A program made the translations under genes and the position numbers. This document shows positions 14,230-44,114 of a stretch of 44,728 bases of DNA, piece after piece. The notes beneath the pieces are model-generated. The model was not told where the DNA came from and did no database searches. It saw only the letters and a program-made list of their open reading frames with translations. Positions within the stretch are counted from its first letter, which is position 1, and each line of letters begins with the position of its first letter. Source of the stretch: Escherichia phage ULINTec6; the sequence record MZ997840.1. The stretch is one strand, 5' to 3'.

Positions 14230-14252
14230 ATTTACTGGACACTATAGAAGGA
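14230..14252 (+). promoter_or_regulatory. Phage RNAP promoter (ATTTACTGGACACTATAGAAGGA)
   Basis: Full consensus match. Confidence 0.8.
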
Positions 14253-14316
14253 AAGCCTAGGTAATCTAGGTTTATAAGGTAGTATAGGTAATTAAGTAAA
14301 TATAGGAGATATAAAT

Positions 14317-21346: not shown

Positions 21347-21475
21347 AGGAATGGAGATGCTTGAGATGATTCTCAAGCCTTCTTCTCCGAAGGTGACTAA
21401 GACTCATGAAGAGTTAATCGTTGATGAAGTGAAGCGTTACATCATGGATTGTGTCAGAGCACAACTGGTGGTCCA

Positions 21476-24633: not shown

Positions 24634-24656
24634 ATTTACTGGACACTATAGAAGGG
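24634..24656 (+). promoter_or_regulatory. Phage RNAP promoter driving the capsid gene (ATTTACTGGACACTATAGAAGGG)
   Basis: Full consensus; transcript starts with the stem-loop gggagaaatgtctccc, analogous to the T7 gene 10 leader. Confidence 0.85.
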
Positions 24657-24704
24657 AGAAATGTCTCCCTAAATTATCAATTTGATTTATAAGGAGGTTT
24701 ATTA

Positions 24705-37313: not shown

Positions 37314-37596
37314 ACATGCAGCTACAGAGGACGAGGTTGGCATTCTGCATGGTGCTATTACCAAAATCTTTAATAAGAAAGCACAGGCAATACTGGACAC
37401 TATAGAAGGAGATCCAGATGCAGCACTGCATTTAGTGTCTGGTAAAGACATTGGAGCTATGTGTAAGTGGGTTCTTGATAATGGTATTACCGCTACACCT
37501 GCTGCACAGCAGGAAGAGTCCAAGTTATCTAAGCGCCTCAAGGCTATCCGAGAGGCATCCAGTGGTAAGATAATTCAATTCACTAAGGAGGGCTGA
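37297..37596 (+). CDS. Terminase small subunit
   Basis: 99 aa, immediately upstream of and overlapping the large terminase; GTG start after AGGAGAG RBS; assignment by position. Confidence 0.6.
   Translation: MSVHNKHAATEDEVGILHGAITKIFNKKAQAILDTIEGDPDAALHLVSGKDIGAMCKWVLDNGITATPAAQQEESKLSKRLKAIREASSGKIIQFTKEG
37389..37410 (+). promoter_or_regulatory. Phage promoter embedded in the small terminase CDS (AATACTGGACACTATAGAAGGA)
   Basis: Near-full consensus inside the coding sequence. Confidence 0.55.
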
Positions 37597-39494
37597 TGGC
37601 TAAGGCAAGAGAGTCACAAGCGGAGGCTCTTGCCAGATGGGAGATGCTACAGGAGTTACAGCAGACCTTTCCGTACACATCGGAAGGTTTGCTTCTCTTT
37701 GCAGACACAGTTATCCATAACTTGATTGCAGGCAACCCTCATCTGATTCGTATGCAGGCTGACATCTTGAAGTTCCTATTCTACGGACATAAGTATCGCC
37801 TCATCGAAGCGCCTCGTGGCATCGCTAAGACAACATTATCAGCAATCTATACAGTCTTCCGTATCATACATGAACCTCACAAACGTATCATGGTGGTATC
37901 CCAAAATGCTAAGCGAGCAGAGGAAATCGCAGGTTGGGTAGTTAAAATCTTCCGTGGCTTAGACTTTCTTGAGTTTATGCTGCCGGATATCTACGCTGGG
38001 GACCGTGCATCCGTTAAGGCGTTCGAGATTCATTACACCCTACGTGGTAGTGATAAGTCTCCCTCTGTATCCTGTTACTCAATCGAAGCAGGTATGCAGG
38101 GTGCTCGTGCTGATATTATTCTAGCGGATGACGTAGAGTCGATGCAGAATGCTCGTACGGCAGCGGGCCGTGCCTTGCTTGAGGAACTGACTAAGGAGTT
38201 TGAATCTATCAACCAGTTTGGGGATATCATTTACCTTGGTACGCCTCAGAACGTAAACTCTATCTACAACAACCTACCTGCTCGTGGTTACTCTGTTCGT
38301 ATCTGGACTGCGCGTTATCCTTCAGTAGAGCAAGAGCAATGTTATGGTGACTTCCTTGCACCTATGATTGTTCAAGATATGAAGGACAACCCAGCACTTC
38401 GCTCAGGGTACGGGTTGGATGGTAATAGTGGTGCACCTTGTGCCCCTGAAATGTATGATGATGAAGTCCTGATTGAGAAGGAAATCTCTCAGGGTGCGGC
38501 TAAGTTCCAGCTTCAGTTCATGCTTAACACTCGCATGATGGATGCAGACCGCTACCCGCTTCGCTTGAACAACCTTATCTTCACTTCATTCGGTACTGAG
38601 GAAGTCCCTGTGATGCCTACGTGGAGCAACGACTCCATCAACATCATTGGAGATGCACCGAAGTATGGCAATAAACCTACAGACTTCATGTATAGACCTG
38701 TGGCCCGTCCTTATGAATGGGGGGCTGTTACCCGCAAGATTATGTATATCGACCCAGCGGGTGGTGGTAAGAACGGAGATGAAACAGGCGTGGCTATAGT
38801 CTTTCTGCACGGCACATTCATTTACGTGTATCAGTGCTTCGGTGTGCCAGGCGGATACCGTGAATCGTCCCTGAATCGCATTGTGCAGGCCGCAAAGCAG
38901 GCGGGTGTTAAAGAGGTATTCATTGAGAAGAACTTTGGTCATGGCGCGTTTGAGGCCGTTATAAAGCCATACTTTGAACGAGAGTGGCCTGTAACTCTGG
39001 AAGAGGATTACGCCACAGGACAGAAAGAGTTGCGTATCATTGAGACGCTGGAGCCACTCATGGCGGCCCACAGGCTCATCTTTAACGCAGAGATGGTGAA
39101 ATCGGACTTTGATTCGGTACAGAACTATCCGCTTGAGCTACGCATGTCCTACAGTCTTTTCAATCAAATGTCGAACATCACGATTGAGAAGAACAGCCTC
39201 CGGCACGATGACCGCCTAGACGCTCTGTATGGCGCTATACGGCAATTAACTTCTCAGATAGACTATGACGAGGTTACACGGATTAATCGCCTCAGAGCGC
39301 AGGAGATGCGCGATTACATCCATGCTATGAACACACCTCACCTCCGTAGGGCTATGCTCTATGGAGATTATGGCACTGAGCGAAGAGTAACCAACACTTC
39401 CGTGGCTATGCAGCAAAGAGTGTACGGTCAGAATTACAGGAGTAAATCGGCCAACCGAAATACACTTTCTGCAAGGATTTCAAGGACTTATTAA
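37596..39494 (+). CDS. Terminase large subunit
   Basis: 632 aa; Walker A-like EAPRGIAKTT; late position as for T7 gene 19. Confidence 0.9.
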   Translation: MAKARESQAEALARWEMLQELQQTFPYTSEGLLLFADTVIHNLIAGNPHLIRMQADILKFLFYGHKYRLIEAPRGIAKTTLSAIYTVFRIIHEPHKRIMVVSQNAKRAEEIAGWVVKIFRGLDFLEFMLPDIYAGDRASVKAFEIHYTLRGSDKSPSVSCYSIEAGMQGARADIILADDVESMQNARTAAGRALLEELTKEFESINQFGDIIYLGTPQNVNSIYNNLPARGYSVRIWTARYPSVEQEQCYGDFLAPMIVQDMKDNPALRSGYGLDGNSGAPCAPEMYDDEVLIEKEISQGAAKFQLQFMLNTRMMDADRYPLRLNNLIFTSFGTEEVPVMPTWSNDSINIIGDAPKYGNKPTDFMYRPVARPYEWGAVTRKIMYIDPAGGGKNGDETGVAIVFLHGTFIYVYQCFGVPGGYRESSLNRIVQAAKQAGVKEVFIEKNFGHGAFEAVIKPYFEREWPVTLEEDYATGQKELRIIETLEPLMAAHRLIFNAEMVKSDFDSVQNYPLELRMSYSLFNQMSNITIEKNSLRHDDRLDALYGAIRQLTSQIDYDEVTRINRLRAQEMRDYIHAMNTPHLRRAMLYGDYGTERRVTNTSVAMQQRVYGQNYRSKSANRNTLSARISRTY

Positions 39495-39516
39495 TTACTG
39501 GACACTATAGAAGGAA
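39494..39516 (+). promoter_or_regulatory. Phage RNAP promoter after the terminase (AATTACTGGACACTATAGAAGG)
   Basis: Full consensus; followed by an AT-rich repeat region and an 8-bp perfect hairpin (gggtgtac-tcct-gtacaccc). Confidence 0.8.
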
Positions 39517-39654
39517 GGCCCAGATAATAAGAGAAATAACAAGGATAATATAGGTTAACCTAGGGTATATAGGTATGCCTTAGTATGGGTGTACTCCTGT
39601 ACACCCTATTCCTTACTTCCTTACTATACTCACATAATAGGAGAGAGAAAAAAA

Positions 39655-39933
39655 ATGTCTAATAGTTATAGCACACAACCCCTTACAGGTAAGTCTGCTC
39701 GTAAGCAGATACAACCTGTGAGTGAAGCCCTGATGCTTCCTGTAGTTTACGAGGACACTGTTGAGAAGAAAGGTGATGTTATTAATGATGCCACCAAATC
39801 AGGTAAGCAGAAAGGAGCCATGGTGTGTCTTGATACACATGATACACTGGTTATTGCTATCGCAGTTGATGGCAAAGAAGATTCCAATTGGCTGACCACG
39901 TTATTAGCGGTCACTACTATTACCCCAGCTTAA
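39655..39933 (+). CDS. Hypothetical protein, member A of a tandem paralogous pair
   Basis: AGGAGAG RBS then ATG 39655; shares MSN..TG...SGKQKG.MV...L.IAIA...TP.A pattern with the next gene. Confidence 0.55.
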   Translation: MSNSYSTQPLTGKSARKQIQPVSEALMLPVVYEDTVEKKGDVINDATKSGKQKGAMVCLDTHDTLVIAIAVDGKEDSNWLTTLLAVTTITPA

Positions 39934-39945
39934 GAGGAGAATTAC

Positions 39946-40233
39946 ATGTCTAATTATGGAAACGCAGGTACTGTTACTGGTCAAGCTTTTCGAGTAAAAA
40001 CTGTACAAACCACTGCAACGGCAATCCCTTTGCCTATTGTTGCTGAAGCAGACCTTAAGAAGAAAGATCACCCTATCAACATTAAACACCTATCTGGCAA
40101 ACAGAAAGGCTCCATGGTTGCTGTAGAGAAAGCAGACAACTCCTTGTACATCGCTATTGCACGTGGTAGTGAACCAACTGACCCTTGGGATGCAACCACT
40201 ATGGAGGAGACACCTGTAACCCCTATAGCTTAA
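39946..40233 (+). CDS. Hypothetical protein, member B of a tandem paralogous pair
   Basis: GAGGAG RBS; clear similarity to 39655..39933. Confidence 0.55.
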   Translation: MSNYGNAGTVTGQAFRVKTVQTTATAIPLPIVAEADLKKKDHPINIKHLSGKQKGSMVAVEKADNSLYIAIARGSEPTDPWDATTMEETPVTPIA

Positions 40234-40242
40234 TTGTAACAG

Positions 40243-40599
40243 ATGAGGTCGGTGGTGCTTAATAGATACTTCAAGCGACGCGAGTTCGCTTGCCGTTGTG
40301 GATGCGGTACATCCACTGTTGATGCTGAGTTACTACAGGTAATCACAGATGTGCGTGAGCACTTTGGCGCACCTGTAGTTATTACCTCTGGTCATCGCTG
40401 TGCAAAGCACAATGCCAACGTAGGTGGAGCAAAAGGTTCCATGCATCTTACTGGTAAGGCTGCTGACATTAAGGTACAAGGTATTACACCTTACCGTGTA
40501 TGGTCTTACCTAACAGCACGATACCCTAATAGGTATGGTATTGGGTCTTACCCTAACTTCACTCACATTGATGTACGAGATGGGTGTGCACGATGGTAA
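40243..40599 (+). CDS. Peptidase M15-type zinc peptidoglycan hydrolase (putative endolysin)
   Basis: SGHRCAKHN, SMHLTGKAADI and FTHIDVRD motifs typical of M15 D-Ala-D-Ala carboxypeptidase / L-Ala-D-Glu peptidase-like enzymes. Confidence 0.7.
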   Translation: MRSVVLNRYFKRREFACRCGCGTSTVDAELLQVITDVREHFGAPVVITSGHRCAKHNANVGGAKGSMHLTGKAADIKVQGITPYRVWSYLTARYPNRYGIGSYPNFTHIDVRDGCARW

Positions 40600-41173: not shown

Positions 41174-41196
41174 ATTTACTGGACACTATAGAAGAG
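41174..41196 (+). promoter_or_regulatory. Phage RNAP promoter upstream of the tailspike module (ATTTACTGGACACTATAGAAGAG)
   Basis: Full consensus. Confidence 0.8.
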
Positions 41197-41275
41197 ATAA
41201 GATAGTGCCGTTCTTTTGAGCGGCCTATTACTAGCCAATCTTCATAGTGAGGGTTGGGAAGTAATAGGAGATTAT

Positions 41276-41678: not shown

Positions 41679-44114
41679 ATGATTCAAAGACTAGGTTCTT
41701 CATTAGTTAAATTCAAGAGTAAAATAGCAGGTGCAATCTGGCGTAACTTGGATGACAAGCTCACAGAGGTTGTGTCGCTTAAAGACTTTGGAGCCAAAGG
41801 CGATGGTAATACAAACGACCAAGATGCAGTAAATGCAGCGATGGCTTCAGGTAAGAGAATTGACGGTGCTGGTGCTACTTACAAAGTATCATCTTTACCT
41901 GATATGGAGCGGTTCTATAATACACGTTTCTTATGGGAACGTTTAGCGGGTCAACCTCTTTACTATGTGAGTAAAGGTTTTATCAATGGTGAACTCTATA
42001 AAATCACGGATAACCCTTATTACAATGCTTGGCCTCAAGACAAGGCGTTTGTATATGATAATGTGATATATGCACCTTACATGGGTAGCGACCGTCACGG
42101 TGTTAGTCGTCTGCATGTATCATGGGTTAAGTCTGGTGACGACGGTCAAACATGGTCTACCCCAGAGTGGTTAACTGATCTGCATCCAGATTACCCTACA
42201 GTGAACTACCATTGTATGAGTATGGGTATATGTCGCAACCGTCTGTTTGCCATGATTGAAACACGTACTTTAGCCAAGAACGCACTAACCAATTGTGCAT
42301 TGTGGGACCGCCCTATGTCTCGTAGTCTGCATCTTACGGGTGGTATCACTAAGGCTGCAAATCAGCGATATGCAACAATACATGTACCAGATCACGGACT
42401 ATTCGTTGGCGATTTTGTTAACTTCTCTAATTCTGCGGTAACAGGTGTATCAGGTGATATGACTGTTGCAACGGTAATAGATAAGGACAACTTCACGGTT
42501 CTTACACCTAACCAGCAGACTTCAGATTTGAATAACGCTGGAAAAAGTTGGCACATGGGTACTTCTTTCCATAAGTCTCCATGGCGTAAGACAGATCTGG
42601 GTCTGATCCCTCGTGTCACAGAGGTGCATAGCTTTGCTACTATTGATAATAATGGCTTTGTTATGGGCTATCATCAAGGTGATGTAGCTCCACGAGAAGT
42701 TGGGCTTTTCTACTTCCCTGATGCTTTCAATAGCCCATCTAATTATGTTCGTCGTCAGATACCATCTGAGTATGAACCAGATGCGTCAGAACCATGCATC
42801 AAGTACTATGACGGTGTATTATACCTTATCACTCGTGGCACTCGTGGTGACAGACTTGGAAGCTCTTTGCATCGTAGTAGAGATATAGGTCAGACTTGGG
42901 AGTCACTAAGATTTCCACATAATGTGCATCATACTACTTTACCGTTTGCTAAGGTAGGAGATGACCTTATTATGTTTGGTTCAGAACGTGCAGAAAACGA
43001 ATGGGAAGCAGGTGCACCAGATGATCGTTACAAGGCATCTTATCCTCGTACCTTCTATGCACGATTGAATGTAAACAAATGGAATGCAGATGATATTGAA
43101 TGGGTTAACATCACAGACCAAATCTATCAGGGTGACATTGTTAACTCCAGTGTAGGGGTAGGTTCTGTTATAGTTAAAGACAGCTACATTTACTATATCT
43201 TTGGTGGTGAAAACCATTTCAACCCAATGACTTATGGTGACAACAAAGATAAAGACCCATTTAAAGGGCACGGACACCCTACTGATATATACTGCTATAA
43301 GATGCAGATTGCAAATGACAATCGTGTATCTCGTAAGTTTACATATGGTGCAACTCCTGGTCAGGCTATACCTACTTTCATGGGTACTGATGGCATCCGA
43401 AATATTCCTGCACCTTTGTATTTCTCAGATGACATTGTTACAGAGGATGCTAAAGTTGGACACTTAACACTTAAAGCAAGCACAAGTGCCAATATACGGT
43501 CTGAAGTGCAGATGGAGGGTGAGTATGGCTTTATTGGCAAGTCTGTTCCAAAGGATAACCAAACAGGTCAACGTTTGATTATTTGTGGTGGCGAAGGTGC
43601 TTCATCTTCTTCAGGTGCACAGATAACTTTGCACGGCTCTAATTCGAGTAATGCTAAGCGTATCACTTATAACGGAAATGAGCACCTATTCCAAGGTGCA
43701 CCAATCATGCCTGCTGTAGATAACCAGTTTGCTGCCGGTGGACCTAGTAACCGATTCACTACCATCTACCTAGGTAGTGACCCTGTTACAACTTCAGATG
43801 CTGACCACAAGTACGGTATCTCTAGTATTAATACCAAGGTGTTAAAGGCTTGGAGTAGGGTTGGTTTTAAACAGTATGGTTTGAATAGTGAAGAAGAGAG
43901 GAACCTTGATAGCATACACTTCGGTGTCTTGGCTCAGGATATTGTAGCTGCTTTTGAAGCTGAAGGATTGGATGCCATTAAGTATGGAATTGTGTCCTTC
44001 GAAGAAGGTAGGTATGGTGTAAGGTATAGTGAAGTTCTAATCCTAGAGGCTGCCTATACTCGCCATCGTCTTGATAAATTAGAGGAGCTGTATGCCACTA
44101 ATAAAATCAGTTAA
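41679..44114 (+). CDS. Tailspike protein with Asp-box (sialidase-like) motifs and C-terminal intramolecular chaperone domain; likely capsule-depolymerising endosialidase
   Basis: 811 aa; Asp boxes SGDDGQTWS and SRDIGQTWES; N-terminal DFGAKGDGNTNDQDAV; C-terminal SDADHKYGISSINTKV...IHFGVLAQDIVAAFEAEG resembles the autocleaving chaperone domain of phage tailspikes/endosialidases. Confidence 0.8.
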   Translation: MIQRLGSSLVKFKSKIAGAIWRNLDDKLTEVVSLKDFGAKGDGNTNDQDAVNAAMASGKRIDGAGATYKVSSLPDMERFYNTRFLWERLAGQPLYYVSKGFINGELYKITDNPYYNAWPQDKAFVYDNVIYAPYMGSDRHGVSRLHVSWVKSGDDGQTWSTPEWLTDLHPDYPTVNYHCMSMGICRNRLFAMIETRTLAKNALTNCALWDRPMSRSLHLTGGITKAANQRYATIHVPDHGLFVGDFVNFSNSAVTGVSGDMTVATVIDKDNFTVLTPNQQTSDLNNAGKSWHMGTSFHKSPWRKTDLGLIPRVTEVHSFATIDNNGFVMGYHQGDVAPREVGLFYFPDAFNSPSNYVRRQIPSEYEPDASEPCIKYYDGVLYLITRGTRGDRLGSSLHRSRDIGQTWESLRFPHNVHHTTLPFAKVGDDLIMFGSERAENEWEAGAPDDRYKASYPRTFYARLNVNKWNADDIEWVNITDQIYQGDIVNSSVGVGSVIVKDSYIYYIFGGENHFNPMTYGDNKDKDPFKGHGHPTDIYCYKMQIANDNRVSRKFTYGATPGQAIPTFMGTDGIRNIPAPLYFSDDIVTEDAKVGHLTLKASTSANIRSEVQMEGEYGFIGKSVPKDNQTGQRLIICGGEGASSSSGAQITLHGSNSSNAKRITYNGNEHLFQGAPIMPAVDNQFAAGGPSNRFTTIYLGSDPVTTSDADHKYGISSINTKVLKAWSRVGFKQYGLNSEEERNLDSIHFGVLAQDIVAAFEAEGLDAIKYGIVSFEEGRYGVRYSEVLILEAAYTRHRLDKLEELYATNKIS

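Follow-up and report, generated by a model that had tools for sequence, protein, structure and literature searches.

Several SP6-like podophages carry, after the gene of the large terminase subunit, genes for small proteins of PHROG 2725, among them gp41 and gp42 of Escherichia phage K1E, gp44 and gp45 of K1-5 and the products of genes 41, 42 and 42.3 of SP6. The only set of members with experimental evidence is that of Klebsiella phage Kp7. Mass spectrometry of its purified virions detected gp45, gp46 and gp47, which the authors listed as minor capsid proteins, apart from the tail proteins (preprint). In GenBank all three bear the name 'minor capsid protein'. Here we describe two such genes in Escherichia phage ULINTec6 (MZ997840.1), whose sequence of 44,728 nucleotides was analysed in full and is called the window throughout. 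The two open reading frames, 39655..39933 and 39946..40233 on the + strand, are orthologues of K1E gp41 and gp42, and we use these names for them. We propose that their products are probably small proteins on the outside of the capsid, of the decoration or minor capsid type; this is the best explanation of the evidence as a whole.

A region of 901 bp around the two genes shares 98% identity with several Vectrevirus genomes that lack annotation and 93%, at the DNA level, with K1E, in which the corresponding genes are named 40B (terminase), 41, 42 and 43. Since these identities hold at the locus and K1E has the same genes, the window is a near-complete genome of a K1E-like podophage (SP6-like, Molineuxvirinae, Vectrevirus). 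K1E and K1-5 share with it the order terminase, promoter, gp41, gp42 and endolysin, and their proteins score E-values of 1e-41 to 1e-47 against the profile hidden Markov model (HMM) of the family. In K1E (locus L001, 451-3095) and in Lelliottia phage phD2B (L013) a homing-endonuclease gene interrupts the terminase gene, whereas here the gene is intact and encodes 632 amino acids. The SP6 proteins are more distant (1e-8 to 1e-26), and SP6 also has 42.3, a truncated third module gene with no counterpart in this phage. Kp7 carries the same family in the same place after the terminase gene, but gp45 and gp46 are only about 48% identical to the proteins of the window (HMM E-value ~1e-21), and its copies number three, the third with an immunoglobulin (Ig) domain.

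Results

gp41 and gp42 are paralogues of a widespread protein module

The products of the two genes aligned over their full length in BLASTP, with 36 identities in 93 positions (39%, E=7e-16). The initial annotation of this DNA, made from its letters, had placed both open reading frames exactly and had noted a pattern common to them (MSN, TG, SGKQKG-MV, IAIA, W, TP) and a separate ribosome-binding site for each (Table 1). All of these could be recovered. The whole pattern is visible in the pairwise alignment and in an alignment of 28 sequences, where T11, G12, R16, K18, S50-G51-K52-Q53, M57, A72, W81 and P93 are invariant, and the pairwise similarity is significant.

Both proteins match PHROG 2725 across the whole module of about 90 amino acids (E-values in Table 1). 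A word-indexed search gave 87 close homologues for gp41 and 93 for gp42, and those on long contigs were mostly on contigs of ~44 kb, which is as long as an entire phage genome. When the profile was run in full against 1.8 billion cluster representatives, 218 members were found at E<=1e-3. A Pfam scan of both proteins gave no match even at E<=1, and NCBIfam and PADLOC scans gave nothing meaningful (best PADLOC match E=0.03, 12 bits). Sequence searches of the PDB with gp42, Kp7 gp45, Kp7 gp46, JSF38 orf7 and the family profile detected no relative. The family is widespread and structurally uncharacterised, and the pair itself, as a feature, is nothing out of the ordinary.

Purifying selection acts on both genes. 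The ratio of non-synonymous to synonymous substitution rates (dN/dS) was 0.24-0.39 for gp41 and 0.14-0.38 for gp42, compared with 0.03-0.06 for the adjacent terminase gene, so that at the protein level the two evolve roughly 5-10 times faster than their neighbour. This is as expected of proteins that are functional yet exposed.

Copy number, fusions and the age of the duplication

Loci taken from related phages were scanned with an HMM built from the family alignment. Module genes lay downstream of a T7-type large terminase gene at all 14 annotated phage loci, from phages of Escherichia, Salmonella, Klebsiella, Proteus, Lelliottia, Erwinia, Vibrio and Pectobacterium, and at one metagenome locus, L010. 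In JSF38 and PP99 a knob-domain gene stands between the terminase gene and a single module gene; elsewhere the module follows the terminase gene directly. This intervening gene (JSF38 orf6, L007 2346-2954; PP99 orf48, L018 1846-2457) encodes 203 amino acids, of which the C-terminal 150 form an Sf6-type tail-needle knob (PDB 3rwn, E=3e-42).

A comparison with related genomes for variation in copy number had been proposed as a check, and it showed from one to three module genes or a fusion of three modules. Vibrio phages phi-A318 and JSF38 have one module gene; the window, K1E, K1-5, Proteus phage PM85 and Lelliottia phage phD2B have two; Erwinia phage phiEa1H has one bare and one extended copy; and SP6 (41, 42, 42.3), Kp7, F4M1D, vB_EcoP-CC1, PSK8 and KpnP_HY have three. 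The third gene occupies the endolysin-side position in CC1, PSK8, HY, Kp7 and SP6. Because the endolysin gene directly follows gp42 in the window, this phage lacks it.

On the metagenomic contigs L008-L011 three modules are fused in one gene. P0180, P0183, P0186, P0190 and some 30 others are single proteins of 256-300 amino acids that hold exactly three modules; the collection of cultured phages yielded none. On contig L010 the fused gene comes right behind the genes of both terminase subunits, small and large. On contigs L009 and L010 the fused gene is followed by another gene that starts with a module.

A neighbour-joining tree of 69 modules is noisy. In it the first genes cluster with first genes, the second with second and the third with third across genera, and the fused proteins behave alike, in that their first modules cluster and their second modules cluster, their third modules only partly. 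The modules group by gene position, and the gp41/gp42 duplication is ancient and clearly predates the Molineuxvirinae genera. The duplication and divergence of the initial annotation holds as paralogy; as a recent local event it does not, with positional lineages conserved across these genera. The passage from separate genes to a fused triple module would offer a clean case of oligomeric virion parts evolving by duplication and fusion.

One protein, P0092 (L020 1632-1919, L021 1023-1310), is a hybrid. Residues 1-58 resemble gp41 and the remainder gp42, and the two parts join at the conserved SGKQKGAMV. The protein is encoded by a lone gene between the terminase and endolysin genes on two independent metagenome contigs of low coverage, and arose either by unequal recombination between tandem paralogues or by assembly collapse. 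If it is no assembly collapse, a single hybrid copy can suffice.

Homologues point to a probable role at the surface of the capsid

The evidence for a virion role comes from relatives of the pair. Besides the detection of Kp7 gp45 and gp46 in virions, further copies of the module carry domains for display. Kp7 gp47, the third copy, has an Ig_3/Ig_2 domain and matches Hoc-like head-decoration PHROGs. Gene 2 of phiEa1H has an extension like the phi29 head fibre (phrog_4366, E=4.5e-11; PDB 3qc7, E=2e-4). Several metagenomic members, including P0310 and P0258, bear an Sf6-type knob (PF16532). From the head-type fusion partners we infer that gp41 and gp42 probably sit on the capsid exterior. The evidence therefore favours the guess of the initial annotation that they are minor virion or decoration proteins. 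Late, strong expression inside the structural gene block is predicted from sequence by the consensus phage promoter and the strong ribosome-binding sites.

AlphaFold predicted the fused three-module protein P0180 as compact and with confidence (predicted local distance difference test, pLDDT, 84; predicted template modelling score, pTM, 0.80), and the module as a small barrel with two short helices. For gp42 alone the pLDDT was 68 and the conserved N-terminal 29 residues were disordered, as would be expected of an arm that becomes ordered only against a partner. Structure prediction had been proposed as a check on the pair; it matched no known fold. In particular, the model was not found to share a fold with the known decoration families considered, namely the beta-tulip of gpD/SHP, Soc, the OB-fold of Dec, Ig/Hoc and the base of phi29 gp8.5. 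That fusions of three modules exist, and that the knob and fibre partners are trimeric, suggests a working unit of three modules.

Several points weigh against a capsid-surface role. The virion evidence is that for the Kp7 homologues (mass spectrometry in a preprint, and naming), and our search of the literature for virion proteomics or capsid cryo-electron microscopy of K1E, K1-5 and SP6 found nothing usable. PDB sequence searches, including those with Kp7 gp45 and gp46, found no deposited structure of any family member. There are two module genes here and not three, so that a trimer-like unit is not implied by the gene count. For the possible three-fold pseudo-symmetry of the fused protein, pTM is the single measure behind the inference.

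The same homologues could also be read differently, with the module anchored on the tail or neck and not on the head, which would make gp41 and gp42 small tail-associated accessory or adaptor pieces near the attachment site of the tailspike. Among the partner domains, the knob is of the Sf6 tail-needle type; the Ig and fibre domains are of head type, and the Kp7 list keeps the three proteins apart from those of the tail. We consider a tail or neck position unlikely.

A conserved promoter and a leader with a conserved hairpin precede the pair

The 13-mer GACACTATAGAAG at 39501-39513 is one of nine exact copies on the + strand of the window, and matches with at most two mismatches number 13 against 1.26 expected. 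This copy has the upstream ATTACTG in common with others. The consensus promoter of the initial annotation is thereby borne out, and K1E, K1-5, CC1, PSK8, SP6 and Kp7 have it at the same place behind the terminase gene. By analogy with the known SP6 promoter, from which the +1 was placed, transcription is predicted to start at about 39510. The AGGAG ahead of the gp41 start codon is kept in all relatives examined.

Other copies of the promoter (14251-14300, 24655-24672, 41195-41225) are followed by TAGGT-rich stretches or short hairpins, and a GGGAGA-AATG-TCTCCC hairpin lies 1 nt past the 13-mer that begins at 24642, at about +6 of the transcript. Among the late transcripts of this genome, structured 5' leaders seem to be general.

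The perfect 8-bp hairpin that had been reported in the spacer, GGGTGTAC-TCCT-GTACACCC, is present, and its pairing is conserved in relatives. The 44.7-kb window has just one other perfect 8-bp hairpin with a loop of 3-6 nt, GCTTGAGA-TGAT-TCTCAAGC at 21359-21378, and when the 160-nt spacer was shuffled, only 1.1% of the shuffles held such a hairpin. All eight stem pairs are kept with five different stem sequences, in the window, SP6 (GGGAGGTA/TACCTCCC), Kp7 (GGGTACTC/GAGTACCC), phiEa1H and phi-A318, while PM85 and HY keep six of eight. Stem pairs were counted by script because the hairpin of SP6, with a loop of 3 nt, was misaligned by MAFFT. Since the stem changes among relatives are compensatory, the comparison indicates that the hairpin structure itself is selected.

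A pyrimidine-rich tract lies 3' of the hairpin in every lineage examined. In an RNAalifold consensus of ten phages the purine-rich 5' end of the transcript, GAAGGAAGG, pairs with the pyrimidine tract CCTTACTTCC. Such pairing would enclose the 5' end, in the manner of stabilising leaders. The single-sequence fold of the whole leader had an energy of -34.2 kcal/mol, which is not significant against shuffles (z=-0.92), and for this reason we claim only the hairpins and no global RNA structure. An Rfam scan of 39300-40400 gave no match. The conserved leader resembles a structured 5' untranslated region more than a replication origin.

The spacer had also been described as an AT-rich repeat region. 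Its GC content does dip, to a minimum of 0.35 in 100 nt where the genome as a whole has 0.45, and short repeats are present. Neither makes it a remarkable feature: the dip belongs to the lowest 4% of such segments and has about 29 comparable troughs in the window, and the repeats are two 8-mers (ATATAGGT, twice, and TTCCTTAC, twice) and one 22-mer of 77%. In the leader of Erwinia phage phiEa1H (L016, ~1545-1665) four perfect tandem 27-bp units, TCTATAGGTAGGCCCAGGTTATCCAGG, lie between promoter and hairpin, where the window has the two copies of ATATAGGT. The repeat of phiEa1H contains a TATAGG motif like the initiation region of the promoter.

These features allow another reading of the non-coding part, in which promoter and AT-rich spacer form a secondary replication origin like phiOR, or the hairpin terminates read-through from the terminase operon. 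In T7, phiOR is located after gene 19, and a phage promoter right after a terminase gene resembles this arrangement in position; the spacer GC of 0.35 and the four tandem repeats at the equivalent place in phiEa1H could be taken in the same sense. The AT-richness, however, is ordinary among the intergenic regions of this genome. For termination, a simple scan flags the hairpin with its T/C-rich tail as weakly terminator-like, and the authors of phi-A318 predicted a terminator at the equivalent hairpin. Yet the tail, TATTCCTTAC, has five T in eight positions and no U-run. Moreover, the hairpin is downstream of the promoter needed for gp41 and gp42, and an efficient stop would defeat that promoter. 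The predicted pairing of the 5' end with the pyrimidine tract, typical of a stabilising leader, also speaks against this reading. We regard an origin or terminator as distinctly unlikely.

Organisation of the locus

The features of the locus are collected in Table 1. Beyond the endolysin gene follow, in order, the holin and spanin genes, a further promoter, a stub like K1E gp46 and the open reading frame 41679-44114, whose product of 811 amino acids takes the place held by the endosialidase tailspike gp47 in K1E.

Table 1. Features from the terminase gene to the endolysin gene of the window.
Feature	Position	Strand	Remarks
Terminase large subunit gene	37596..39494	+	open reading frame of 632 amino acids; same annotation in all related records
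Phage RNA-polymerase promoter, SP6/K1E type	39493..39513	+	overlaps the terminase stop codon; predicted +1 ~39510
Structured 5' leader of the gp41-gp42 transcript (predicted)	39510..39654	+	RNAalifold consensus, 10 phages
Imperfect 10-bp stem-loop CTAGGGTATA-TAGG-TATGCCTTAG	39560..39583	+	3' arm inside the conserved block AGGTAnGCCyTAGT
Perfect 8-bp hairpin, TCCT loop, followed by a pyrimidine-rich tract	39587..39606	+	flagged weakly terminator-like
Tandem TTCCTTAC x2, pyrimidine tract	39609..39624	+	comparable C/T-rich tracts in all relatives examined
Ribosome-binding site of gp41, AGGAG	39639..39643	+	11 nt before the ATG at 39655
gp41-type module gene, 92 amino acids	39655..39933	+	first position after the terminase gene; phrog_2725 E=3e-40
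Ribosome-binding site of gp42, GAGGAG	39934..39939	+	6 nt before the ATG at 39946
gp42-type module gene, 95 amino acids	39946..40233	+	second position; phrog_2725 E=3e-46
Endolysin gene (Peptidase_M15_3)	40243..40599	+	Pfam E=1.6e-31; phrog_894; directly 3' of gp42

gp41 and gp42 are in one reading frame, separated by a TAA and 12 nt (39931-39945). We considered a read-through gp41-gp42 fusion and rejected it, since the frame relation is kept in K1E, K1-5 and PSK8 but not in CC1, SP6 and Kp7. The shared frame is probably coincidental and no read-through device.

Discussion

The conserved pair could encode non-structural late accessory proteins, such as assembly chaperones or factors of lysis timing or host interaction, that are not stable components of the virion. 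The proteins are small and fast-evolving, their genes adjoin the lysis cassette, and the virion data concern the homologues in Kp7 and not this phage directly. Against this, those homologues were found in purified virions, the fusion partners of the module are surface-display domains, and nothing meaningful among defence-related or other functional profiles was matched in the scans described above. We find a non-structural role very unlikely.

There is virtually no chance that gp41 and gp42 are acetyl-CoA acetyltransferases (thiolases), as RefSeq and PHROGs have it: thiolases rely on catalytic cysteines, whereas gp42 has no cysteine at all and gp41 has one, none being invariant in the family alignment, and the proteins have 92-95 amino acids against ~390 for the two-domain thiolase fold (Pfam Thiolase_N and Thiolase_C), with no thiolase match in Pfam (E<=1) or NCBIfam and no sequence match in the PDB. 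The name is wrong because the proteins are a quarter of thiolase size, lack a thiolase domain and, in gp42, any cysteine; length, missing domain and missing catalytic residue together rule the identity out. What speaks for it is a propagated label. It goes back to the 2006 record of K1E, in which gp42 is a 'putative Acetyl-CoA acetyltransferase', and has spread to many RefSeq and GenBank records of related phages, including NC_007637, NC_008152 and NC_019403, and to the name of PHROG 2725. Such a label could mislead surveys of metabolic or auxiliary genes in viromes.

We therefore return to gp41 and gp42 as capsid-surface proteins, and the following model may be proposed. The two are ancient paralogues of a module of ~85-90 residues, found in SP6-like and related Autographiviridae, that would anchor to the virion. 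A phage-polymerase promoter of their own would drive late, strong transcription through a structured leader, each gene has a separate ribosome-binding site, and their products would assemble as small decoration proteins on the outer surface of a T=7 capsid of the HK97 type. The working unit would be a trimer-like body of three modules. In each module the conserved N-terminal arm (TG..R.K) may make the contact between subunits or with the capsid, while a small beta-barrel core would bear the invariant SGKQKG.MV...A.A...W motif. Units could be mixed from both paralogues, or each paralogue could form homo-oligomers on quasi-equivalent sites of a different kind. Sister phages have another copy of the module that carries an Ig, head-fibre or knob domain, and this phage has the two bare modules only.

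A bolder form of this model, which we put forward tentatively, is that the module is a widespread capsid-anchoring fold, of which three copies, as a trimer or a single-chain pseudo-trimer, make a universal socket for Ig, knob and fibre domains, with each paralogue adapted to quasi-equivalent sites of its own in the T=7 shell. If true, it would add a new fold to the decoration proteins and a ready display scaffold for therapeutic phages of K1 strains, Klebsiella and Salmonella. Phages like K1E, SP6 and Kp7 serve in phage therapy and supply depolymerases. If gp41 and gp42 are proteins of the head surface, they would affect the stability and immunogenicity of the particle and provide a natural site for display engineering.

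Among systems outside the family, the phiOR region of T7 resembles the locus in that a promoter directly downstream of the large terminase gene is followed by a spacer of lower GC. It differs in that the promoter here plainly serves conserved downstream genes through a structured leader.

An RNA-polymerase-encoding podophage with a small capsid-decorating protein is the T7-like Vibrio phage Peru-2, whose P2_50, of ~12 kDa and highly abundant in the virion, caps the 11 non-portal pentons (PMC13320782). P2_50 is described as a seven-stranded Ig-like sandwich that forms pentamers, whereas for our module a small barrel and two short helices are predicted; the two were compared by description only. 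A GDSL lipase is likewise abundant in Peru-2 virions and is not visible in the map (PMC13320782). In Pseudomonas phage uligo a match to the module lies under a gene annotated 'lipase'. Vibrio phage JSF38 was considered as a stand-in for Peru-2 and rejected, its gene map lacking the pair of a 931-amino-acid spike and a 473-amino-acid lipase.

The classical decoration proteins are lambda gpD/SHP, T4 Soc and Hoc, Dec of phage L, phi29 gp8.5 and T5 pb10. The module, whose capsid binding is putative, has no sequence or fold similarity to any of them; the phi29 fibre is resembled only by the extension of the phiEa1H paralogue. What they have in common with the role proposed here is that they are small, abundant, late surface proteins of the dispensable type, many of them trimers at three-fold or quasi-three-fold sites. 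They also combine a capsid-binding base with a displayed Ig or fibre domain, as do the extended paralogues of the module family.

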